Of a stretch of DNA of 64,000 bases, positions 2,331 through 64,000 are shown piece by piece. Origin of the DNA: a virus. Its lineage: Duplodnaviria > Heunggongvirae > Uroviricota > Caudoviricetes. Within the stretch, counting starts at the first letter, position 1, and every line of letters starts with the position of its first letter. A program made the position numbers and the translations under genes. Where the stretch lies: IMG/VR virus record IMGVR_UViG_3300037313_001751, positions 1 to 64,000 of that record; one strand, written 5' to 3'. The notes beneath the pieces were generated by a model that saw nothing but the letters and a program-made list of their open reading frames with translations, was not told the origin of the DNA and did not search any database.

Positions 2331-2930
2331 TCACTTCCCAAGACTGTTTAACAAATGGTCTCTATTGTGCTGCTCAACCATTGCCCCGATTGCACAACCA
2401 TGCGCAAACGCTTTGTGGAAGGATTGTAGATGACCTGCGACTGTCTGCACATCGAGCTCATTAATACTGGAAGCAAACGCAGGGTAGTCGTTTGCCAGGC
2501 TTTGGAGCATAATTCTGACGTTACGCACCTCAACACTACCAAACGGTTCATCGAACAGAATGCGATAATACAACGCTGTAGGCGCCGGTCGATTGTTTGG
2601 CTTTAGTGTGATTATAGCAATGTCACGCAAGTAAGTTGACACTTCCTTACGCCAATGACTTATGTCAGGATTTGACGGCATTGCAAGGATTTTCAATAAA
2701 TGTGTGTTAAGCGGACGTTCAATACTAGTTATAACGCTTTCGGCCTTCTTGCGCGAAAACAACATCTCCAGCAGTGCGCCTTGTGCAAATTCCTTCAGCC
2801 GCATGCCGCAGTTCCCTAGACCCAGAAGTATAACGGGCCCTTCGGTAGGATCAACGTTAGCTTGGTAGCGAGGTCCCGGATTGAACGGGAAACTCCAGGG
2901 TATGAACCTAGCGAGATACCATTTCTCCAC
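2331..2930 (-). CDS. hypothetical protein
   Basis: 199-aa ORF co-directional with neighbours; no recognised motif. Confidence 0.45.
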   Translation of the reverse strand: MEKWYLARFIPWSFPFNPGPRYQANVDPTEGPVILLGLGNCGMRLKEFAQGALLEMLFSRKKAESVITSIERPLNTHLLKILAMPSNPDISHWRKEVSTYLRDIAIITLKPNNRPAPTALYYRILFDEPFGSVEVRNVRIMLQSLANDYPAFASSINELDVQTVAGHLQSFHKAFAHGCAIGAMVEQHNRDHLLNSLGK

Positions 2931-3102
2931 CGCGCACTCTATTTAGTCTTATATAAGTTTCTCCCATTTCACCCCATCCATTTGCTTGCAGTGCATTGAA
3001 GCATATGTCATTGCCTTCAATCGATGCCGCCTCCATATCACGTGAGTTCATGCACCATGGCCACACACTTTTACCACAGTACCTACAAGATTGGTGTGTC
3101 AT
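2908..3102 (-). CDS. small Cys-rich hypothetical protein
   Basis: 64 aa, CRYCGKSVWPWC; tandem with next small ORF. Confidence 0.25.
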   Translation of the reverse strand: MTHQSCRYCGKSVWPWCMNSRDMEAASIEGNDICFNALQANGWGEMGETYIRLNRVRGGEMVSR

Positions 3103-3103
3103 T

Positions 3104-3286
3104 TCACTCCTTAATTGCTACCAAAGATATAAGATGTTCACGCATCAGTTCCGACAAACTCTCCCAAGTCGGGCAGTGGTGTCCATCCGATGAACGCACA
3201 ACAGATTCATACTTTTCACGGGCAGCTTGCTCTCTGAACTGACGGTTACCGGCGTTTGTTATTCGAGATTGAATATGTTTGCACAT
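3104..3286 (-). CDS. small hypothetical protein
   Basis: 60-aa ORF in the same orientation as its neighbours. Confidence 0.25.
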   Translation of the reverse strand: MCKHIQSRITNAGNRQFREQAAREKYESVVRSSDGHHCPTWESLSELMREHLISLVAIKE

Positions 3287-3339
3287 CGGACTATAGCCTT
3301 CCCTACTAACAGTTGGATGCTATCTCTATTGGACTGCGC

Positions 3340-3603
3340 TCAGTGAATGGTTGGCCTTTCGATAGTCTCAATGCGACTAAGAAAGGCAATGTTTTTTGAT
3401 GCCATATCGCGTGCATTTTTGATTTCATCCACCTTTTCTTGTAGCTCGGTCACGTGCCTACAGATCGCGAGGGAAGTAACGCACGCTCCAATACCAATAC
3501 CCGATAAAAGTGAAAAGATTGGCTCGTCGAAAAATATGCACAAGCCACCATTGACAACACTCAGTATTAAGACCGCTATCGAAGCTAGTTTTAACTTTCG
3601 CAT
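3340..3603 (-). CDS. small membrane protein (two TM segments plus coiled-coil tail)
   Basis: LASIAVLILSVVNGGLCIFF and GIGIGACVTSLAI hydrophobic stretches; chosen over the fully overlapping plus-strand ORF, which does not look like a protein. Confidence 0.35.
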   Translation of the reverse strand: MRKLKLASIAVLILSVVNGGLCIFFDEPIFSLLSGIGIGACVTSLAICRHVTELQEKVDEIKNARDMASKNIAFLSRIETIERPTIH

Positions 3604-3609
3604 TTGACC

Positions 3610-4161
3610 CTACAACAAAATGGATTGGCGAGCATTTATCGAGGATTCAACAGCGTCAAGTCCCATTCGGATACCGCTTTCGTTTTCGAGCAACCATTCT
3701 GCATCGCGATGTTTCTCAATTCCGTTAAGCAAATTCACTAACTGGCCAATCATCTGTTGATCCCAGCGTATAAGCTGCTGAAGCGTTGCGGCCTCTTGTC
3801 TATAACGCTGTGTCATCCGGTCGGTGCTAGGGACTGGAAGGGCGCGTATCTTGCCCTCTAGTTGTGAGATCTTCCGCGATATCCGCTCTAGCGTGCGCGC
3901 ATTTTCAAGGGCTCTTTGGTCATAGGGATTGTCTTTTGTAGGTGGTGGCAGGTTCATGCGACGATATTCAGAGCCGACAGTCTCGAAATATCCTTTTGCA
4001 AGGCCGAGAAGATAGCTAGCTCTTGCCCTCACCTTCAGGTCATCTTGTCGTAACTGGTTTTCGACCTTATAAAAGTTATACCCCCAACCGTAAAAAGCCG
4101 TGATAGCTAATTGCTCAATGTAACTCGCATCGTAGAATCTAGAATATGACTCCTCGATCAT
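3610..4161 (-). CDS. hypothetical protein
   Basis: 183-aa ORF; compact operon with the downstream SPFH-like gene (12-bp gap). Confidence 0.5.
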   Translation of the reverse strand: MIEESYSRFYDASYIEQLAITAFYGWGYNFYKVENQLRQDDLKVRARASYLLGLAKGYFETVGSEYRRMNLPPPTKDNPYDQRALENARTLERISRKISQLEGKIRALPVPSTDRMTQRYRQEAATLQQLIRWDQQMIGQLVNLLNGIEKHRDAEWLLENESGIRMGLDAVESSINARQSILL

Positions 4162-20403: not shown

Positions 20404-21951
20404 TCAAACTTTATCCTTTGGCCGTCCGAGGAACTTGTACATATAAGACTTACCATTTGGTTTCAATGCGAAAGGAAAGCCCTCAACGCTATGGATAAGC
20501 CGACGCATTTCTTTGCCCCACTCGTCATGGTCAAAACGCCGTTTTCCGTAGTGATCGTTTTCCCATTCCCTATACTGAATATATAGCGCCGAACTATGGA
20601 TGAAGTTATCGTTGCCAAATCCGTTTGGCAGTAGATAAGCCCATTCTTCACAAGGGTTCATCACGCGAATGTCTTCTTGCGCTAATTTCATCTGGCTCTC
20701 GAAGCGAACCAATGGATCTTCACCCCGTTCATCCACACTCTGCCACAGTGCGTGAAAATCTACTGAGTTGGTAAACGCAAAGTTGGTTTGCTTTTTGAAC
20801 CGGATTCCTATGAAACGCCTTGCTCCAGTCTCGTCACGAATCAACTGGTCGACTTCTCTGTTACTAGCACCGATAAAAACCGCATTTTGTTTCACCAATA
20901 TGACGTTATTGGTGCGCATCACGCGTCGAACCAACGTATCGGATGTAATCAGGTTTTTGACGTAGTCAACATCGGCCCTTGAGGCGAACCCCATCTCGTC
21001 CAAAATCAATACACAATTGTCCCAAATATCAATGTTCCTGTCATCTGTTATCTGGTTAAAATCTGTGCTAGCGGTCAACTCGCAAAGCGGCGATACCAGC
21101 CTCTTCATCCATTCAGATTTCCCAGTACCTTGGACTCCGAGGATGATCGGCATAAGGTGGTTGGTAACAGGTAAATTTTGGATCTTTCGCTTAACCTGCC
21201 AGATGAATTTCTTTATGATGCCGACAATAAAATCAACATCCATCAACGTTGTATCAAATGTATTGTTGACCATATCCTGCCACAACTGATCGACTTCTTC
21301 GATAGGAATTCGTGAATGGCCATACAAAATACCAGCGAATATTTCGGCTCGCCTGTTTAGTTGCTCAGTCTTAAGCCAGTCTTGAATAACGTCATCAATC
21401 TCACCTGCAGTAAAACGCAGGTCCAACTCCCTTGCCTTTATCCGCAGCGTCCGTGCTAAGTCTTCTGTAGTAATATGGCGCTCCTTGCACGCCAAGATAT
21501 CCTGATATAGGCGTTGCTCCTGCTTTATCGCCGCTATGTCTTCGCTTGTAGCGTTTGCGAGGCGGGCGTTGACTTTTGCTAACTCAGCTTCGACATCATA
21601 CCCTTCGTGGTAGACCTTTGTGTGCTGAGTGATGCTTTTCTTATAATTAACTTTGATGTTGAACTTGTCGCAATAAAGCCGCAAAAATATTGCTGGTGTT
21701 TTTGGATCTCCTCCTAATTCATCTCTCACCTTTCTTATTTCGATTGCCCTATTCCACTCGCGTTTGGTTATGAGTCGCTCTCTCAGGAAAAAATCACGGA
21801 TGCGTGTGTGGTTACCTTCGAGGTTTAACAAATCGATATAGTCATACGGATCAATATCAAGATTGCGCGCTTTCCTTGAACCAAGATCCGCTAGTATCTC
21901 CTCATGCAAATCGTCTGTATGTGGTGCTGGTAGGGGTATTACATTGTTCAT
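20404..21951 (-). CDS. phage/plasmid primase-associated P-loop ATPase (D5 / VirE / P4 primase C-terminal type)
   Basis: Walker A ILGVQGTGKS; Walker B VLILDEMGF; then RRVMRTNNVILVKQNAVFIGASN...ETGARRFIGIRF typical of VirE/P4-primase helicase modules. Confidence 0.7.
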   Translation of the reverse strand: MNNVIPLPAPHTDDLHEEILADLGSRKARNLDIDPYDYIDLLNLEGNHTRIRDFFLRERLITKREWNRAIEIRKVRDELGGDPKTPAIFLRLYCDKFNIKVNYKKSITQHTKVYHEGYDVEAELAKVNARLANATSEDIAAIKQEQRLYQDILACKERHITTEDLARTLRIKARELDLRFTAGEIDDVIQDWLKTEQLNRRAEIFAGILYGHSRIPIEEVDQLWQDMVNNTFDTTLMDVDFIVGIIKKFIWQVKRKIQNLPVTNHLMPIILGVQGTGKSEWMKRLVSPLCELTASTDFNQITDDRNIDIWDNCVLILDEMGFASRADVDYVKNLITSDTLVRRVMRTNNVILVKQNAVFIGASNREVDQLIRDETGARRFIGIRFKKQTNFAFTNSVDFHALWQSVDERGEDPLVRFESQMKLAQEDIRVMNPCEEWAYLLPNGFGNDNFIHSSALYIQYREWENDHYGKRRFDHDEWGKEMRRLIHSVEGFPFALKPNGKSYMYKFLGRPKDKV

Positions 21952-36413: not shown

Positions 36414-39400
36414 TTACAATCCCTCCCAGGGCTTCGTGCGGCGTGTTGGCGTTGCTAGTTTGAACGTATGATCGACGTAGTCGAAATTTGGATTATAGAA
36501 TGGATCCATATCTAACTGGCGACCCCATTTTTGCCGCATATACGCCTGGGACCTACGATAGCGATGTATCTTATCGGGGTCTTCATCCGATCCTCGGCTC
36601 GCTGACTCGTAGTGGAACAATTCAGCAAAGGGCGTCCATACAACTTTTAGTCCGTGTTCTCGCACACGCAAACAAAAATCGACATCGTTATATGACACGG
36701 GTAAATTGTCAGCATCAAGCCCTCCCAGTTCAAGGTACAGTTCTTTTGTTACAGCAAGACATGCGCCGGTCACAGCACTAACCTCGCGTGTCAGTGCATA
36801 CTGCCCTACGTAACCACCGCTATTTTCATCATCATAGTGTCCAAAATGTCCTGCAACACCATCGGTGCCGACTCCAACAACAACGCCAGCATGTTGAATC
36901 CGACCATCGCCGTATAGCAGTTTTGCGCCGACAACACCCACATCTGGCCTAGATACGATCGACACCATCTCGCGCAACCAGTTTCGATCTTTGACCTTTG
37001 TGTCATTGTTAAGCAAGACTAAAATATCGCCACTGCTTTCCTTAGCTCCGAAATTGTTGATCGCCGAATAATTGAAAGGTCCGGGGTAAGAGACCACCCG
37101 GATATTGGACGTCTTAGAATATTGCTCAAGTAGGAATAGCGCACTCTCCTCCTTGCTGCCATTGTCGACAATAACCACCTCAAAATTATCATAATCAGTA
37201 TCTAGGACACCACCAATACACTGCGACAGCAAGCTAGCCCTGTCCCGTGTCGGTATAATAATTGAAACTTTTGGCGTTGGCACTGGCAGTGGCCAAATAA
37301 CACGGCTCCATTCAGCAGCCAACTTCGCCGGCGCAACTTTTGCACCTTTGATATGTTTACTGTGTAGGTAGTCGGCAATTGCTCGCCGCGCAGCGGCAAC
37401 ACACTGGTCCAGTTGCGACTGAGAAAACGAGCCCTTTTCGGGGTCGAGACGCCAGTGATACAGCACGGCTGGAATATGATAAATTTTGTCCGTTTTCGCG
37501 GCACACCTCAGCGTGAGATCATAATCCTGGCTGCCGTCAACAATGCCTTCCCTGAAGCCGCCGACTGATTCGACCAACGACCGCCTATAAACACCTAGGT
37601 GGCTGAACATATTGTGGCCGAACATAAGGTCAATGTTGAAATCTGGCTTGAAATACGGCTGGAGGCGTCTCTTGTCCGGCCCCATCCGATCTTCGTCGCT
37701 GTAGATCATATCGAGGCTTTTGTTATCATTAAGCGCCACTACAACTTCATACATTGCGGTCTCTGCTAAGAAATCATCATGGTCCATCAGCAGGATGAAC
37801 TCACCCTTTGCTAATTTTATCGCAGAGTTACTCGCAGCGGCTATATGGCCGTTTGTGGAACGCCATGTAACTTTGATCCGCTTATTTTTCGATGCCTCCC
37901 TCCGAATAGCTCTCCGTGTCTCTTTGTTGGTTGATGCGTCGTCAGCGATGCACAATTCCCAGTTGTCATATAGCTGTGCTTCGATACTTGCGATCGCGTC
38001 CCTGAGATAGCTTGGCTTTGTATTGTATGTTGGCATAACCACGGAAATTAGTGGCTTGTATTGCAGTTTGGCGATGTGGCTCCTTATTAGCTCGCGATCT
38101 CGTGAAGTCAGCGTATCGTTGTGCCGCACCCAATTATCGTAATCTGTCGGCTCAAAACCACCCCGTGCCGGCTCTTTCCTTCTGTCGCCTATTAGTGACG
38201 TCAGCCGGCGTCGCACATTCACTGGAACATATGATCCTAACACTCGCACCGGCGCAGTAGCCCGCCACATTGTTGAGTTCTTCAACATGTCGCGTTCAGC
38301 CTGCACACTGCTAAGCTGCGCCTGCATAGCGTGCAGGTGGTTCCGCAATGCGTTGATCTCTTCGACATCGGTCACAACTTGAACCGGTGACTGCGCCTGG
38401 GGCGCGGCAAGTCTCAGAGCCTCAGACAGCGCAGCAGACAGCCTCGCTTTCTCAGCGTTTGCGACGGATGCGATGGAGGTCAGACGACCAATTTCATTTC
38501 GCAAAGTGTCTGTCTCATCGACATGTTTGTTTGTAGCAGCCTCTAGTTGCTGAATACGGCCGACGCTTTTCTGAAAGCTTATTCGCTGTTCGTCTAGCTG
38601 GTTCGATAAGAGCGCAATCTGCGTTTCCATTTGTTCTGATTGTGCTTGCGCAGTCGTCATTTTTGCAGTAAGCGCGTCGATTTCTTGCAGTCGTGTAGCA
38701 TCGGCGACATTGTGATCAGCTACTACCTTAGCTAATTCTGCGTGTTTATCACTTAACTCTTGCTGCTTTTGATTGAGCTGCACTTGTAGGCCTGCTAACT
38801 GACTACGCAGGGACGAAAGGTTTAACCGCTGGCGAATTAATTCGACAAACCCATGCAGCAAATCGCGGGTTACCGGCCCCTTTTGCAACAGGAAAGCGTG
38901 TGGCGCTATAAACGATGCATCAAACGTTGTTACGGGTGCAAACCCAACGTCTGCAAATTTGTTAAGCCACCAAATTGTTGGCTTAACATTTATGTGGGTC
39001 GGTTCTATGATGTCGATTGGTGAAGATGAAAACAGCACGCGTGGTGCCGCATCGGCCATATTGTAAATTGCCTGTAGCGCCTCTTCTTCGCTCATATGTT
39101 CAAGCACCTCGATGCAGACGATCAAATCGAAGATGCCATTAAATCGATCTGTTAAACTCCCTTGTTCCACAAACGGCCGTACATCTGGCCTTACCTGGGA
39201 CACAGCAAAATTGGAAATATCCCTTCCATACGCTTCAATACCCCGATCCCATAATGCCTCCACCAAAAACCCATGTGCACAGCCAGCGTCAAATACTGTT
39301 TTCGGTGCGAGACTGCGCACAATCTCATCGGCTATGCCGCCAAAAAACAACCCCCATTCGGGCTCTTCGCGAGCATAGGGTTTTTGCCCGCAATGCGTCC

Positions 39401-39455
39401 GATAATAATCAGCGTTATAAGTCTCGTCCACGTCGTATCCAGTTTGTTCGTCCAT
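36414..39455 (-). CDS. multidomain glycosyltransferase: N-terminal SAM-MTase + coiled-coil + two family-2 glycosyltransferase (GT-A) domains
   Basis: 1013 aa; MTase motif I VFDAGCAHGFLVEAL; GT2 #1 ISVVMPTYNTKPSYLRDAIASIEAQLYDNWELCIADDAS; GT2 #2 VSIIIPTRDRASLLSQCIGGVLDTDYDNFEVVIVDNGS; DxD-type acidic motifs present. Confidence 0.8.
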   Translation of the reverse strand: MDEQTGYDVDETYNADYYRTHCGQKPYAREEPEWGLFFGGIADEIVRSLAPKTVFDAGCAHGFLVEALWDRGIEAYGRDISNFAVSQVRPDVRPFVEQGSLTDRFNGIFDLIVCIEVLEHMSEEEALQAIYNMADAAPRVLFSSSPIDIIEPTHINVKPTIWWLNKFADVGFAPVTTFDASFIAPHAFLLQKGPVTRDLLHGFVELIRQRLNLSSLRSQLAGLQVQLNQKQQELSDKHAELAKVVADHNVADATRLQEIDALTAKMTTAQAQSEQMETQIALLSNQLDEQRISFQKSVGRIQQLEAATNKHVDETDTLRNEIGRLTSIASVANAEKARLSAALSEALRLAAPQAQSPVQVVTDVEEINALRNHLHAMQAQLSSVQAERDMLKNSTMWRATAPVRVLGSYVPVNVRRRLTSLIGDRRKEPARGGFEPTDYDNWVRHNDTLTSRDRELIRSHIAKLQYKPLISVVMPTYNTKPSYLRDAIASIEAQLYDNWELCIADDASTNKETRRAIRREASKNKRIKVTWRSTNGHIAAASNSAIKLAKGEFILLMDHDDFLAETAMYEVVVALNDNKSLDMIYSDEDRMGPDKRRLQPYFKPDFNIDLMFGHNMFSHLGVYRRSLVESVGGFREGIVDGSQDYDLTLRCAAKTDKIYHIPAVLYHWRLDPEKGSFSQSQLDQCVAAARRAIADYLHSKHIKGAKVAPAKLAAEWSRVIWPLPVPTPKVSIIIPTRDRASLLSQCIGGVLDTDYDNFEVVIVDNGSKEESALFLLEQYSKTSNIRVVSYPGPFNYSAINNFGAKESSGDILVLLNNDTKVKDRNWLREMVSIVSRPDVGVVGAKLLYGDGRIQHAGVVVGVGTDGVAGHFGHYDDENSGGYVGQYALTREVSAVTGACLAVTKELYLELGGLDADNLPVSYNDVDFCLRVREHGLKVVWTPFAELFHYESASRGSDEDPDKIHRYRRSQAYMRQKWGRQLDMDPFYNPNFDYVDHTFKLATPTRRTKPWEGL

Positions 39456-57314: not shown

Positions 57315-58586
57315 TTATGTCTTCAATGTACGCTTTTCGCCGAGGTAATCCCTGCCCATAGCTTGTAATTGCGTAGCAAGGTCCTGTAGCTTATGCACGA
57401 GAATCTTATACTCGCTCATTTTGATATCAGGCAACTGTAATTGCACGTTGTTCAGGTGGTCGTCAATCGATGCCATGGCCGGGCTTGGTGTAGCGCCACC
57501 AACAACATCCACATTTACTGGTGCATCTGCGTCCGGGGCGATCGGATCGACATCACCCGACAGGCTATCAACTGGCGCGCTATCCACGGGCACGGCAAGA
57601 TCAACACTTGGATCTGGCGCCGCTATATCAGGCGCTATGTCTACATCGGCGCCGTCTGCAGAAGGTGGCTCCACGCCTACAGGATCGACCGGCGGGTCCA
57701 TCGGTGTTGGCGGCAGCCCGGCCAACTCCCGCAGTCGAAACAACGGGATAACATCGGCAAAACCAACGACACCCTCATTGAGATTATGGTCTAATGTAGG
57801 AGCTTTATTTTCTGCCAATTTATCGATCGCCTCATCCCACTCACGCTTCTTGTGCTTAGCACCACGGCCACGCTCATCTTTCTGATCCATCTTACGCTTT
57901 GGATCAATAACACCTGCCTTTGACTGCATACGTTGCAAATCTTTATTATGGGGGTTACGCGGCGTCATCATGGCAAGCTTTTCCTTAGCCTGGTTAGCGC
58001 GTTTCTGCCAGTTCGTCGTCTCGGCCACTCTCGCTTCTCCTGGTACTTTTGAGTCACGAACGTATCGTTGCTTGCGCATCAATCCCGATATAGTTCTACC
58101 GACCTTATACGCGTGATCGCGATCTTCACATTTTATATGAAAATGACCACGACCGTTAGTTAAGAATTCAATTTTATTTTGATCTAGCCATTCGATCAAT
58201 TGGTCAGACAACGCTGGCTGTTCCATTATGGCAATATAGTTGAACCCTTCCATCGCCAACATGCGGTCTTCTGGATTGTCACTTTCGGCAATTGGCATTA
58301 AATTTTCAAGCGGCTGTTCAGCCTGTTCAGCAACTTCATTCTGTGAATCTAACCCTCTGTACATTCTGTGTAAACGATCGGTGTTCATTGCTGCCTCTTT
58401 TATGCTAACGCCATAGCCCCGTAGGATTTGATTTGCTTGTGCTACAGCAGATGTTGAATTAGATACTGTAAGGCAATTGATCAGATTGATTAAGTCAGAG
58501 CCAGATATGGTGTTTTGCAACTGAGTTGCTGTTTGATTATCAATCCCATGCTGCACAAGTAGTTGAGACAGACTTTGATCTACCAT
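57315..58586 (-). CDS. hypothetical protein with Pro/Asp/Val-rich C-terminal repeats
   Basis: 423-aa ORF; PVDPVGVEPPSADGADVDIAPDIAAPDPSVDLAVPVDSAPVDS repeat-like tract. Confidence 0.5.
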   Translation of the reverse strand: MVDQSLSQLLVQHGIDNQTATQLQNTISGSDLINLINCLTVSNSTSAVAQANQILRGYGVSIKEAAMNTDRLHRMYRGLDSQNEVAEQAEQPLENLMPIAESDNPEDRMLAMEGFNYIAIMEQPALSDQLIEWLDQNKIEFLTNGRGHFHIKCEDRDHAYKVGRTISGLMRKQRYVRDSKVPGEARVAETTNWQKRANQAKEKLAMMTPRNPHNKDLQRMQSKAGVIDPKRKMDQKDERGRGAKHKKREWDEAIDKLAENKAPTLDHNLNEGVVGFADVIPLFRLRELAGLPPTPMDPPVDPVGVEPPSADGADVDIAPDIAAPDPSVDLAVPVDSAPVDSLSGDVDPIAPDADAPVNVDVVGGATPSPAMASIDDHLNNVQLQLPDIKMSEYKILVHKLQDLATQLQAMGRDYLGEKRTLKT

Positions 58587-60033: not shown

Positions 60034-61425
60034 TCACACTGACTTCAAAAATGCAAAGCCCACTTGTGCAAGCGGCTCTTTTAGATTAGCTGGAACCTTC
60101 GAATAGCTTCTCATCGACTGTAAATTTTGCCGTAGTTTTTGTATAGCCTCAGCTGACATGCCATTGCTGTCTAAATGAGAGACCATTTTATTCAAAAGAC
60201 TAGCATTTACGGCGCTGCCACTAGTGGTTCCAACTCCCCCTTTTGGCGTGCGCTGATTTTGATAGTATTGTGCAACATTGTCGTCGAAGCTACTTGCGCT
60301 ACCAGGGTTATAACCGCCTGAGGTATTTCCGCCACCAGGCGACGGCCCAACAGGTGGCACGCTAGCTGCTGCGGCAACACCAGTCTGCGTCTGGACCTTA
60401 CTTGAGACCATATCTTTGTCATGAGCATACGCAGCCGCCGACGAAAAGATGTTTGCAAGATCCTTTCCTCTAATCGCTGTATTTGCCGCACTAGGAATTT
60501 GGAGTTCGACCAATTTTTTCGATCGAGGCTTAGTAGATTCGGTCTGGTTGCCTGCAATCTTCGAATCATGAGCCCTAATATTGGCAGTATGTTGATCACG
60601 TTCTTTGGAAAACTCTTGTGACCGGGAGTGGTGATAATTGGCTCGCGCTTGCGGCTTCGCTTTAGCATCAGGATGAGTATAAGAATTTGCTTTTGCAATA
60701 TTCTGGTCGCGCAGCTTTGCGTGATGCGACGCCAAGTCTGCTGCCGTTTGGCGGGCACTGAGGGCGCCCCTTCGGTCCCAATTCGGCTCTCCTGGTTGCG
60801 GTGGTGCTGTATTGTTTGCGGCGGCAGCACGGTTATCAGCTGCGGCCTGGATGTGTGGAGGAACTGGCGGCATCACATTCTTGCCAAGGGGTGCGCCTGG
60901 CGCCCTATTGGCAGCGGGCGCCGCGCTAGCCTTAGCCGGTGCAGGATTTGTTGTTATTGTATGAGGCATACCGGAAGCATATTGCTGAGGATTAGCAACT
61001 GATGGAGGTACTACCGCAGGTGTAGGCGTGGGTGTAGGTGTAGGTGTAGGTGCGCCGGTCTTTGCAGGCATTGCAACGGTTGGCTCTTGCCGTTGGCCCG
61101 AAGTCTTCGCACCAGAAGCTGCATGCTGCCCTAAAATTTCTTGCGCCTGTTTAGGCTCAAAGCCGATCATCTGCAAATACTGCTGCACATCGTCAGCAGT
61201 GCCTTTTCGGTTTGTTTTTCCGACCCAAACGGAGAATCCGTCCTGCATCTGTTTCGCAAGGGTGTCACGTTGAACACGACCTTGGGCACGTTTGTTACCG
61301 ATCGCGCCTAGAGCCTTATTAGCAAGCCTATTAAGTATTGGGCCTTCGGTAACTGGCTCGCCTGAACTGCCAGCATCCTCAAGCAGAGTAATAAAACTTC
61401 TCATATCGTTACTGACTGCTGACAT
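60034..61425 (-). CDS. Pro/Ala-rich hypothetical protein with (TP)n linker
   Basis: 463-aa ORF; TPTPTPTPTP encoded by a GTAGGT tandem repeat at about 61017-61053. Confidence 0.5.
   Translation of the reverse strand: MSAVSNDMRSFITLLEDAGSSGEPVTEGPILNRLANKALGAIGNKRAQGRVQRDTLAKQMQDGFSVWVGKTNRKGTADDVQQYLQMIGFEPKQAQEILGQHAASGAKTSGQRQEPTVAMPAKTGAPTPTPTPTPTPAVVPPSVANPQQYASGMPHTITTNPAPAKASAAPAANRAPGAPLGKNVMPPVPPHIQAAADNRAAAANNTAPPQPGEPNWDRRGALSARQTAADLASHHAKLRDQNIAKANSYTHPDAKAKPQARANYHHSRSQEFSKERDQHTANIRAHDSKIAGNQTESTKPRSKKLVELQIPSAANTAIRGKDLANIFSSAAAYAHDKDMVSSKVQTQTGVAAAASVPPVGPSPGGGNTSGGYNPGSASSFDDNVAQYYQNQRTPKGGVGTTSGSAVNASLLNKMVSHLDSNGMSAEAIQKLRQNLQSMRSYSKVPANLKEPLAQVGFAFLKSV
61017..61053. repeat. 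hexanucleotide tandem repeat (GTAGGT/GTGGGT, about 6 units) encoding a (Thr-Pro)n linker
   Basis: gtgtaggcgtgggtgtaggtgtaggtgtaggtg visible in the sequence. Confidence 0.6.
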
Positions 61426-61690: not shown

Positions 61691-62015
61691 CGTCGGCCTG
61701 CCTGTATTTTTCCGTTACGCGGGCCAGCATTTCGGCAGCTAAATTCAGCCCCTCTTCAATTCCTAACGCATAATTCTGATTCTCGTTCAGCTCACGATAG
61801 CTTTTAAGCCTGAATATCATGTTATCGAGATCCTCTAGGAGGTACATGATTTGGTCAGCTTGACTTTCAACCACTGGTGTGAGGTCACCGGACAAAACTT
61901 CATCCTCCGTTGAGGTTATATTTTCGGCTATTCTTATATAGCTTTGCATTTCGTCCAAATGCTTTGCCATAGAAAGATCTCCTTTAAGTATCAATTTATT
62001 TATTGCGTATAGCAA
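61683..62015 (-). CDS. hypothetical protein
   Basis: 110-aa ORF. Confidence 0.4.
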   Translation of the reverse strand: MLYAINKLILKGDLSMAKHLDEMQSYIRIAENITSTEDEVLSGDLTPVVESQADQIMYLLEDLDNMIFRLKSYRELNENQNYALGIEEGLNLAAEMLARVTEKYRQADVD

Positions 62016-62019
62016 TCTG

Positions 62020-62523
62020 CTACCGATTTGACATCTCGCCTGCCAATTGTAGCACAGAGGTCCTTACCTTAGCTGGTTCGCCTTCAGCCTGTGGCGACGC
62101 TTCCTGTCGTGTCGTCGGCTTTAGTTGTTGTAGCGGCCTGGCAAGCATAGCAGGTGGATGTTTGACGGCAGGACTACCATCCTTATTGCTTATGCGCATG
62201 TTTGTAGTGTCATAGGCGAGTGTAATTTTGTGACCGACACCAGCCGACGAACGTGTTTTTAGCAGTTGTAATTCGTATTCGCCAACTTCACGCAACGCTG
62301 GTGAAGAGAATATCGCCATAACATTGTCCGCGGTATTAAATTTTGAAATGCCACCAGCAATATGGCTTGCATCAAAATGACTTTCTTGTATAGCGGAATT
62401 ATGCGTCAAAATGCCATTGGCATAGAAGAGATTGTTGCCAGTGACCTCCAAGTCCAACGTCGACACTTCACCGACCTCTTCAATGCTAACAATTTCGTCC
62501 TCTAATTCAAAAAGCTGACGCAT
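62020..62523 (-). CDS. DnaB-family helicase C-terminal fragment preceded by a 42-aa split-intein C-segment (IntC)
   Basis: MRQLFELEDEIVSIEEVGEVSTLDLEVTGNNLFYANGILTHN|S: intein blocks F/G ending HN+Ser, of DnaE-IntC size; followed by extein AIQESHFDASHIAGGISKFNTADNVMAIF (helicase C-terminal region); GGGAG RBS 8 nt upstream. Confidence 0.7.
   Translation of the reverse strand: MRQLFELEDEIVSIEEVGEVSTLDLEVTGNNLFYANGILTHNSAIQESHFDASHIAGGISKFNTADNVMAIFSSPALREVGEYELQLLKTRSSAGVGHKITLAYDTTNMRISNKDGSPAVKHPPAMLARPLQQLKPTTRQEASPQAEGEPAKVRTSVLQLAGEMSNR
62398..62523 (-). other. split intein C-terminal segment (IntC, 42 aa)
   Basis: Compare Npu DnaE IntC MIKIATRKYLGKQNVYDIGVERDHNFALKNGFIASN|C with ...STLDLEVTGNNLFYANGILTHN|S. 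Confidence 0.65.
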
Positions 62524-62934
62524 TTTTCAATTACTCCCATGTTATTTGCTTTCCAGTCCTCTTTCCAAATTTCGAGGGCTGGTAATCCTTGTGTCTGATA
62601 CACTATATGCGTTTTGAATCGATTGCATTCAACTGGTGAATGGTTACAGTATTATCATAGGAATAAGGCCTATCGTCCGGTGCAACTAAGTTTGAATTAG
62701 CTTGAAATGCGTTGCCATAAAACTCAATGGGTGGCGTACTCTGCCTTCACAAACAATGGCGAGCTAACCGCGCCAAATTGAGGCCAACATACCGGCGACA
62801 TAGAAAGAGGAAACTTATGTTCGACATACTGGACTACTAGCTCCATAAACCGCGTGAATTATCAACTGTCACCAGCGGAAAGGCATGCTGAAGCCGTTCA
62901 AAATTTGTTTGCAGATCGCTAGTTGAGTGGCTGT

Positions 62935-64000
62935 CTACGATTTTGTATTTATTTGCGCAAACAGGACATCTCCGACCTTTAGACCTGAGTTGATCGACTT
63001 CACACCGTTAACTGTTGGAAAGAGATGATGCTTCGAGCATTCAATGGCTTTACCAGACTTAGTGACTATCCTATAGGTTTTTTGCACCGATGGACTGGTT
63101 TTAGCTACTACCTGAACTGGCCCCTCGTTAGAGTCCAGCCAATCGCCAATGTTGACGTCTTTGATCTTAATTGGATTGCCGTTGGCTGTGACAGAGGTGT
63201 TTTCTGAAAGACATCTATTAAGCTGGCTCGCAGTAGCACATAGGATATTCAGTTCTGCTGCTAGCGCCCGCAGTTCTTCAGATGTGAACTTGTCCTTGAC
63301 AAATAGATCGCTCAGTGATACCGAGGTATTGTTTGGATACACAAGGTCCAAATAATCGACAAGCAGACCATCGACTTTTACGCCTGACTGAATTTCGTAT
63401 TCCCTGATATAAGCGCGAATATCAGCGGCAGTTGTTCCGGCACCGCGCATCGCTTTGATCTGAAGCTTGCCCCAGCTTGCACTCCTGCGCACAATAACGT
63501 TCCATTTGAGCATCGAATCTTCTGTGTTTTTTACAATCTCCTCAGTACCTAATTTGGTAATCATCGCGTCATAGCGCAGCCCAATTAAGTCTTCAGATAA
63601 TTCCAGTGTAATGTAGACGATATTCAACCCTTGTTCGACCCAGTTCAACGCAAGGTTTTGCAGGAAAAGGCTTTTGCCGGTATTGTGGCTAGAAATACCA
63701 TTTGTATAATAACGTTGGTTTTCATGACCTATAGACAGATCATAACAATCTTCAAGGCGCCGTTGTTTTTTGATATCATCCACTACGTCAAGGCCCTTAG
63801 CAGTAATGAGGATGTCACCAACTAATAGTTCCCTGACATAGCGCCAACTGCCGTTCTTGACCTGGAAAAGATGATCGTAACTAGCTCGTATTTTAATCCC
63901 ACTCTTCATTCTGACATCATAGACAATTTTGTCTGCTTTCCGCACCCACCACGTTGCTGGCACCCATCCATCCGGGCTATCAACGTAGTACTTAACGCCC
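62935..64000 (-). CDS. DnaB-family (T4 gp41 / DnaB-like) replicative helicase, N-terminal part: truncated by the window edge, contains a cis mini-intein in the P-loop and ends in a 92-aa split-intein N-segment
   Basis: Frame stays open beyond position 64000; extein GISSHN|TGKSLFLQNLALNWV...ITLELS...LLVDYLDLV...ATASQLNR carries DnaB motifs H1 (interrupted), H1a, H2, H3; C-terminal CLSENTSV...HHLFPTVNG...GDVLF is an N-intein; the track start at 63963 is a GTG inside the open frame. Confidence 0.75.
   Translation of the reverse strand, partial: GVKYYVDSPDGWVPATWWVRKADKIVYDVRMKSGIKIRASYDHLFQVKNGSWRYVRELLVGDILITAKGLDVVDDIKKQRRLEDCYDLSIGHENQRYYTNGISSHNTGKSLFLQNLALNWVEQGLNIVYITLELSEDLIGLRYDAMITKLGTEEIVKNTEDSMLKWNVIVRRSASWGKLQIKAMRGAGTTAADIRAYIREYEIQSGVKVDGLLVDYLDLVYPNNTSVSLSDLFVKDKFTSEELRALAAELNILCATASQLNRCLSENTSVTANGNPIKIKDVNIGDWLDSNEGPVQVVAKTSPSVQKTYRIVTKSGKAIECSKHHLFPTVNGVKSINSGLKVGDVLFAQINTKS
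62938..63213 (-). other. split intein N-terminal segment (IntN, 92 aa) fused after helicase motif SQLNR
   Basis: CLSENTSVTANGNPIKIKDVNIGDWL (block A) ... ECSKHHLFPTVNGVKSINSGLKVGDVLF (block B, TxxH); in-frame TAG at 62935-62937 ends it. Confidence 0.65.
63682..64000 (-). other. contiguous mini-intein inserted in the helicase Walker A loop (N-terminal part lies beyond the window)
   Basis: IRASYDHLFQVKNGSWRYVRELLVGDIL (block B) ... CYDLSIGHENQRYYTNGISSHN|T (blocks F/G); extein resumes TGKS, the P-loop GKS/T. Confidence 0.6.

Follow-up and report, generated by a model that had tools for sequence, protein, structure and literature searches.

The stretch of DNA analyzed here, referred to as the window, comprises 64,000 nucleotides (nt) and covers positions 1 to 64,000 of the IMG/VR virus record IMGVR_UViG_3300037313_001751, which is assigned to the Caudoviricetes. 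Near its end, a gene for a replicative helicase of the DnaB/gp41 family is divided into 2 open reading frames (ORFs) by a split intein that belongs to the gp41-8 family. The whole feature is carried on the minus strand, where the N-terminal helicase ORF ends with the N-terminal half of the intein (IntN) and a TAG codon, and the C-terminal half (IntC) opens a separate helicase ORF after a gap of 411 nt, which contains the remains of a homing endonuclease gene. The split intein is genuine, and its halves very probably undergo trans-splicing. The features of the locus are listed below in the order of transcription, with arrows marking the intein junctions.

63682 to 64000, minus strand: C-terminal part of a cis intein in the helicase P-loop, GGPG↓CVAYN...GISSHN↓TGKS (from translation)
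63214 to 63681, minus strand: helicase extein between the 2 inteins, from Walker A to motif H4, TGKSLF...ATASQLNR
62938 to 63213, minus strand: IntN, 92 codons, CLSENTSV...KHHLFPTVNG...AQINTKS, with Cys1, block B CSKHH, and a net charge of +4
62935 to 62937, minus strand: TAG that closes the N-terminal helicase/IntN ORF (from translation)
62524 to 62934, minus strand: spacer of 411 nt, the relic of a Vsr-like homing endonuclease gene (from tblastn, shuffled sequences, and a profile hidden Markov model, HMM)
62534 to 62538, minus strand: GGGAG, a Shine-Dalgarno-like motif within the endonuclease relic, 10 nt 5' of the IntC ATG (62523)
62398 to 62523, minus strand: IntC, 42 codons, MRQLFELEDE...LFYANGILTHN, with blocks F and G, a penultimate His, a terminal Asn, and a charge of -8
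62020 to 62397, minus strand: helicase C-extein, from Ser+1 and AIQESHFDASHIAGGISKFNTADNVMAIF... to the stop codon (from translation and helicase alignments)

The N-terminal helicase ORF enters the window at its edge, position 64000, and its helicase core inside the window reads TGKSLF...ATASQLNR, followed by CLSENTSV...AQINTKS and the TAG codon. The complete N-half was obtained from contig L001, an identical contig among the 3 described below that reaches beyond the window edge and also covers the upstream neighbours of the gene, and is 625 amino acids (aa) long. The C-half ORF consists of 167 codons, starting with MRQLFELEDE...STLDLEVTGNNLFYANGILTHN (42 codons), continuing with S-AIQESHFDASHIAGGISKFNTADNVMAIF..., and terminating at a stop codon at positions 62022-62020. 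The 2 ORFs are located 414 nt apart in the same frame, and the spacer read in the helicase frame contains 9 stop codons, including the TAG. In the related locus L004, the distance between the halves is not a multiple of 3, and we therefore consider the shared frame in the window to be coincidental. The IntC start codon is preceded by similar ribosome-binding motifs in the relatives, namely GAGG in L004, GGAG in L011, and GAGGGA in L008, and the split layout itself is identical in L004, L006, L008, L009, and L011.

The C-half protein was found with an exactly matching sequence on 3 further contigs that stem from separate runs and assemblies, Logan SRR35147159, JGI 3300038443, and Logan SRR35147322. 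The identity of these contigs to the window, with the spacer included, was 100%, 99.97%, and 100%, respectively, and the lone difference was a single-nucleotide polymorphism at position 63579 in 3300038443, which is located outside the spacer. In all 3 contigs, the N-extein with IntN is closed by a stop codon, and Met-IntC and the C-extein form an ORF of their own. Because these assemblies read straight across the spacer, an assembly artefact can be excluded. No near-identical DNA was matched in the phage collection, and no relatives were retrieved from IMG/VR when it was scanned with a pattern of the C-half.

A preliminary description of the window, which proposed that an intein splits a DnaB-family helicase into 2 ORFs, is borne out by these data and by the homology to gp41-8 and gp41-1 described below. 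Its coordinates, the segment lengths of 92 and 42 aa, and the intein motifs all agree with our translations, as do the GGGAG ribosome-binding site and the ATG upstream of IntC and a second, cis intein in the same gene. It was also right to argue against a broken pseudogene, given that the ORFs are intact, the catalytic residues are retained, and the split layout is conserved in relatives, and the assembly error in the spacer that it had asked to be checked is contradicted by the 3 other assemblies. The common frame to which it drew attention is real in the window and incidental to the family, and the TAG and the 411-bp spacer are present as described, although the latter has turned out to be an endonuclease relic.

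When IntN and IntC were joined and compared to the sequences of solved structures, the gp41-1 intein (6QAZ) was matched over essentially its full length (E = 1.5e-20). The DnaB and DnaX mini-inteins gave far weaker matches, with E-values of 5e-6 to 1e-4 for the DnaB inteins, and no DnaE intein was retrieved among the solved-structure matches at E-values up to 1. The joined sequence was closer to gp41-8, with 53% identity over 137 aligned positions (E = 6e-45), than to gp41-1, with 40% identity; the gp41-8 sequence and its native junctions were taken from the supplement of PMC7090010. The residues that characterize a class-1 intein are all present. The Cys that directly follows ...SQLNR aligns with Cys1 of both gp41-8 and gp41-1, the block B sequence S60-K-H-H63 aligns with S-A-N-H in gp41-8 and S-E-E-H in gp41-1 and conforms to the pattern T/S-x-x-H, and block G ends with ...GILTHN↓S, which provides the penultimate His, the terminal Asn, and Ser+1. 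Among 52 homologous C-halves, the residues I, E, D, L, F, A, N, I, L, T, N, and S+1 were near-invariant, and the homologous N-halves P0068-P0072 terminate at the same place as the IntN of the window. The halves carry opposite charges, +4 for IntN and -8 for IntC, compared to +5 and -10 in gp41-8.

The host protein was identified from its extein segments. The segment at 63214-63681 matched the Pfam domain DnaB_C (E = 2.7e-11) and PHROG 19, a DnaB-like replicative helicase (E = 2.4e-52). Removal of both inteins in silico yielded a protein of 470 aa, the best solved relative of which was T4 gp41 (8DUE, E = 8e-21), and the alignment to T4 gp41 was free of gaps over both junctions, GGPG-TGKS and SQLNR-SAIQES. 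In a bacterial DnaB, the sequence that aligned with the second junction was SQLNR↓SLEQRA, which corresponds to motif H4. The protein spliced in silico resembles the intein-free homologues P0073-P0104, which carry the sequence ...ASQLNR(S/G/A)(S/A)(V/I)(E/Q)E.FD.SHI.GGISK.NTADN. Because these homologues run through the site uninterrupted, the insertion point could be fixed precisely. A DNA primase gene is located directly upstream of the helicase gene; it was identified by its match to phrog_47 (E = 2e-35), whereas a Pfam search of the same protein gave no match.

The intein in the P-loop is a contiguous sequence of 188 aa with an insert of about 70 aa after block A (nt 5523-6086 in L001), of which only the last third falls inside the window. 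It accounts for a Pfam Intein_splicing match of 41.4 bits on the N-half. In L008 (2475-4906) and L006 (736-3674), the P-loop intein is also split, in an atypical manner, with a short IntN of 14-36 aa (...ALAG↓CVHPDTLITIRIKK followed by a stop), an endonuclease-like ORF of its own, and a long IntC. The helicases in L008 and L006 are encoded in 3 pieces, with 2 split inteins each.

The nature of the spacer was indicated by the intact ORFs found between the intein halves in the related loci. These are listed below.

L004/L005: an ORF of 376 aa
L006/L007: an ORF of 431 aa with weak matches to MTES_1575/DUF559 (Vsr-like nuclease)
L011-L013, positions 2542-4014: an ORF of 490 aa with a DUF7487 N-terminal region and a GIEVCGVYWHSD motif, in a very abundant lineage
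L009: a GIY-YIG gene
L008: 94 nt only

Between L004 and L006, the intervening ORFs share homology (E = 2e-31); a Pfam search of the intact L004 endonuclease gave no match. Since the ORF in L011-L013 is of another kind, at least 3 endonuclease types share a single split point across phages. In tblastn searches, the intact ORFs of L004 and L006 matched the spacer with E-values of 5e-11 and 3e-8, in 3 collinear pieces that are spread over 2 frames.

62775 to 62864, minus strand: relic segment A, RFMELVVQYVEHKFPLSMSPVCWPQF, corresponding to residues 36-61 of the 376-aa L004 endonuclease, 54% identity
62579 to 62728, minus strand: relic segment B, IEFYGNAFQANS...KRI-stop-CIRHKDYQ, corresponding to catalytic-core residues 302-351, 36% identity, with an in-frame stop codon
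62502 to 62606, minus strand: terminal piece with the last ~30 residues, ...LEIWKEDWKANNMGVIEKCVSFLN and a stop codon, compared to ...IEVWENDYKINPIEVIERCISFLS and a stop codon in the intact gene (from tblastn and the profile HMM)

The top-scoring segment reached 35.8 bits, compared to 14.5 +/- 3.6 bits and a maximum of 24.6 bits in 300 shuffled spacers. A profile HMM built from 4 intact genes matched the spacer with E-values of 1.3e-11 and 2e-8, in forward frames only and up to the very end of the model. The terminal piece overlaps the start of the IntC ORF by 22 nt, which is the same overlap as for the intact gene in L004, and from this overlap it follows that the ribosome-binding site and the ATG of the C-half sit within former endonuclease coding sequence.

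In addition to a deletion of about 240 codons, the endonuclease gene has suffered 2 or more frameshifts and has acquired an internal stop codon. The catalytic motif IEFxGDxxH reads IEFYGNAFQ in the relic, with D changed to N and H to Q, and the pattern WEN(D/E)Y of the intact genes is replaced by WKEDW. The spacer has neither the intact ORF nor the catalytic residues of a Vsr-like homing endonuclease and reads as the relic of such a gene rather than a functional member, so that an endonuclease gene lying between the halves, with its 3' end overlapping the downstream gene, is present only in the form of a pseudogene. Two short ORFs remain inside it, one of 40 codons (62724-62846, minus strand), which holds relic segment A, and one of 33 codons (62502-62603, minus strand), which ends 22 nt into the IntC ORF. 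In principle, translation of the latter could be coupled to that of the C-half. A reading of the spacer as an intron, ribozyme, or other RNA element was rejected, since an Rfam search that included group I and II introns gave no match and the spacer RNA folded no better than shuffled sequences (z = +1.1).

The relative age of the break and the decay can be ordered by comparison to L004. The tails of the IntN sequences, ..QINTKS in the window and ..RINRED in L004, each followed by a stop codon, are homologous, and both IntN segments are 92 aa long, which argues that the gene break is older than the divergence of the window from L004 and that the decay of the endonuclease gene is secondary. The ratios of the proportions of nonsynonymous and synonymous differences (pN/pS) between the window and L004, given here in place of substitution rate ratios (dN/dS), were 0.22-0.32 in the intein and extein regions, compared to 0.43-0.49 in the pieces of the relic, at saturated synonymous sites.

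Free-standing ORFs consisting of IntC and an extein turned out to be abundant. At a clustering threshold of 90% identity, 60 of the 61 clusters related to the C-half were of this kind, with lengths of about 140-260 aa and most of them in the range of 140-185 aa, while in the remaining cluster, P0003/L010, the mini-intein is contiguous and belongs to a phage that is closely related and syntenic. For a broader count, we considered the best 150 matches that included IntC from an exhaustive search of representatives at 50% identity. About 42 of these best 150 were free-standing C-halves, about 12 were contiguous inteins in full-length helicases, and 7 further representatives carried an N-terminal extension. 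The 8 contiguous inteins that could be delimited were mini-inteins of 125-152 aa located at QxNR↓C...THN↓S. Split N-halves that stop right after IntN were also found among the homologues. With dozens of free-standing C-halves at the same site, the split intein is neither rare nor new in kind, and the preliminary description overstated its rarity, given the approximately 60 clusters and 42 representatives of free-standing C-halves.

An N-terminal extension of 40-70 aa before IntC was observed in the free-standing C-halves P0054, P0056, P0058, P0060, P0111, P0201, P0220, and P0245. A predicted protein of 5631 aa, P0200, contains 5 separate stretches that match the IntC region and may represent a giant protein in which several inteins or HINT domains are combined.

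The closest known counterpart is gp41-8, which, like gp41-1, is a split intein of a fractured phage gp41 helicase gene with a free-standing homing endonuclease gene between the halves and, in the published gp41-8 locus, a primase gene upstream (Dassa et al. 2009, PMC2677866). The window shares with gp41-8 the type of host protein, the upstream primase, the insertion site (LNR↓SAI, compared to LNR↓SAY in gp41-8; Pinto et al. 2020, PMC7090010 supplement), the split point with an IntN of about 89-92 aa and an IntC of 42-45 aa, the basic IntN and acidic IntC, and an intervening endonuclease that is not of the GIY-YIG type. It differs in that about half of the intein residues are not the same, the endonuclease gene has shrunk to a relic of 411 nt, and the helicase gene also holds a cis intein in the P-loop. 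The inteins gp41-1 to gp41-7 are related and split at the same structural position. However, gp41-1 is inserted 3 residues further on, at SGY↓SSS (Pinto et al. 2020, PMC7090010 supplement) rather than at R↓S, and its endonuclease is of the GIY-YIG type, whereas gp41-7 is a published split locus without an endonuclease gene (Dassa et al. 2009, PMC2677866), unlike the window in which a recognizable pseudogene is left.

The preliminary description had likened the intein to the DnaE type, which it does not specifically represent; it is an allele of gp41-8, with which it shares the LNR↓SA junction and the split point. The Ssp and Npu DnaE inteins are natural split inteins that act in trans, and their halves are paired electrostatically. 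They resemble the intein in the window in being naturally split and in the sizes of the halves, but the DnaE halves are encoded at distant cellular loci and belong to the alpha subunit of DNA polymerase III, whereas those of the window are adjacent, belong to a phage helicase, and have an endonuclease remnant between them. Bacterial DnaB proteins provide another parallel with 2 inteins per replicative helicase, at sites a and c in motif H4 and site b in the P-loop (Novikova et al. 2016, PMC4760082; Kelley et al. 2018, PMC6195587), although these inteins are each encoded in one piece, whether or not an endonuclease domain is included in frame, and have only weak sequence similarity to the one in the window. 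The insertion site, which had been described as the classic one of DnaB, is the same at the level of the motif (SQLNR↓S in H4), whereas a residue-exact equivalence to sites a and c could not be established, as the 2 studies (PMC4760082, PMC6195587) place the sites by motif and the Ssp DnaB junction was not found.

We consider it highly likely that the locus represents a fractured phage helicase gene with a gp41-8-type split intein, in which the break was made by an endonuclease gene that later decayed, and the halves of which trans-splice. According to this scenario, a class-1 mini-intein would first have separated the R and the S of SQLNR↓S in the H4 motif of a helicase that resembles gp41 and DnaB. 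The mini-intein would then have been invaded by a free-standing gene for a Vsr-like homing endonuclease, the insertion of which would have supplied the stop codon after IntN as well as the ribosome-binding site and the ATG of IntC, thereby turning the mini-intein into a split one like gp41-8. An origin of the C-half start signals within endonuclease coding sequence is part of the model of Dassa et al. (2009, PMC2677866). In the lineage of this phage, the endonuclease gene would later have decayed to the non-coding relic of 411 nt, the 3' end of which would still provide the translation start signals of the C-half. The arrangement agrees with the step termed "loss of the endonuclease gene" in the published model. 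We infer that the halves are co-transcribed, expressed, and actually spliced. They would be transcribed jointly and translated separately, whereupon the basic IntN and the acidic IntC would pair and adopt the HINT fold, in which Cys1, the block B His, the terminal His-Asn, and Ser+1 would perform trans-splicing to yield a continuous helicase, ...ASQLNR-SAIQES..., while the upstream P-loop intein would splice in cis.

Splicing is deduced from homology to gp41-8, which splices efficiently in published experiments, where it was active when split at its natural site and showed 81-97% cis-splicing when fused (PMC7090010 supplement). Several points weigh against this interpretation. The Pfam Intein_splicing match to the joined intein, a check that had been suggested in the preliminary description, was obtained with an E-value of 7e-8 but at 32.8 bits, slightly below the curated cutoff of 35.8 bits, and a single-sequence AlphaFold prediction of the joined intein was uninformative (pLDDT, predicted local distance difference test, of 38). 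The 3 confirming assemblies may stem from related samples. No promoter-like site was found in a sigma-70 scan of positions 61900-63300, although the consensus may not be the phage's own, and the only terminator-like site in the same region was located on the plus strand and did not exceed the expectation from shuffled sequences, such that neither kind of signal could be assigned. Saturation of the synonymous sites in the comparison to L004 means that selection cannot be quantified. Finally, an ORF of 515 aa at 20407-21951 (minus strand) contains VapE-like and DUF5906 domains and matches phage primase/helicase PHROGs, and with such a second helicase-like protein the phage may not depend on the split helicase.

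The second helicase-like ORF would also fit a situation in which the insertion of the endonuclease killed the helicase gene and left 2 non-splicing remnants, with replication performed by another helicase of the phage or the host, and the endonuclease proves that genes at this locus do decay. Yet, the helicase ORFs show no interruption along their 625 and 167 codons, as opposed to the spacer, in which every frame is broken. Moreover, every catalytic residue of the intein and every helicase motif is retained, the pN/pS values of the halves are below those of the relic, the split layout is conserved over dozens of divergent lineages, and an intein with 53% identity is efficient in published splicing assays. 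We regard the loss of the helicase gene as unlikely. Slightly less probable still is a helicase of 2 non-covalent subunits, for which the intein pieces would serve as a dimerization module without formation of a peptide bond. Split-intein halves bind each other tightly and the charges are complementary in the window, and the products of intein-free genes fractured by endonucleases, such as the SbcD-like gene and NrdA of Aeh1, must act non-covalently (Dassa et al. 2009, PMC2677866). However, Cys1, the block B His, the His-Asn pair, and Ser+1 would be needless for mere association, and they are retained here and near-invariant in the family; about 134 extra residues in the DNA-binding motif H4 would also be expected to disturb function.

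The common frame of the ORFs at a distance of 414 nt could hint at a contiguous intein, if the spacer were a sequencing or assembly error, a removed intron, or a segment bypassed by the ribosome. We give this almost no credence. The sequence is carried by 3 further assemblies, the spacer contains 9 in-frame stop codons, has no Rfam match, and folds like its shuffled versions (z = +1.1), and it is homologous to a free-standing coding endonuclease gene that overlaps the IntC start in related loci too. Furthermore, the C-half has its own ribosome-binding site and ATG, which are conserved in relatives, and the shared frame is not kept in L004.

The window as a whole is phage-like, with genes for a virion protein and for subunits of a T4-type topoisomerase II. 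An ORF of 1013 aa at 36417-39455 (minus strand) has a methyltransferase-like N-terminus and 2 glycosyltransferase-like regions according to its PHROG matches, and may encode an enzyme for the modification of DNA or the surface. Downstream of the helicase gene, 2 large ORFs at 60034-61425 and 57315-58586 (both on the minus strand) contain long low-complexity stretches (PTPTPTPTP and repeated PVD/APD). Outside the window, upstream of the primase gene, an ORF of 514 aa (2329-3870 in L001) is conserved beside the primase-helicase module and had no match in Pfam or PHROGs.

The locus is a new allele in the known family of gp41-8 split inteins and no new kind of element, and the added point of interest is that the homing endonuclease gene has decayed in situ. 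Split inteins of the gp41 family rank among the fastest tools for protein ligation, and an allele that is only 53% identical to gp41-8 could yield an additional orthogonal pair; the pair in the window might be orthogonal to gp41-8 and hence a new tool for fast trans-splicing. We also put forward, tentatively and with considerable doubt, that the locus is midway between a split intein with an active endonuclease and one that is free of it, and that the deletion spared precisely the 3' end of the endonuclease gene, which supplies the C-half with its ribosome-binding site, its ATG, and possibly translational coupling through the ORF of 33 codons. Sequence of a selfish element would in this way have become an expression signal that the helicase cannot do without. 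If so, this would explain how split inteins persist in a functional state after the loss of the endonuclease, on the way to dispersed split genes such as dnaE. In this helicase family, every stage of gene breaking in the published model is represented, across metagenomes, at a single site, from intein-free genes and contiguous mini-inteins to split inteins with an intact endonuclease gene, with a decaying one as in the window, and with none, which makes the family suited to dating the steps of gene breaking and to asking which of the endonuclease-derived sequences must stay.

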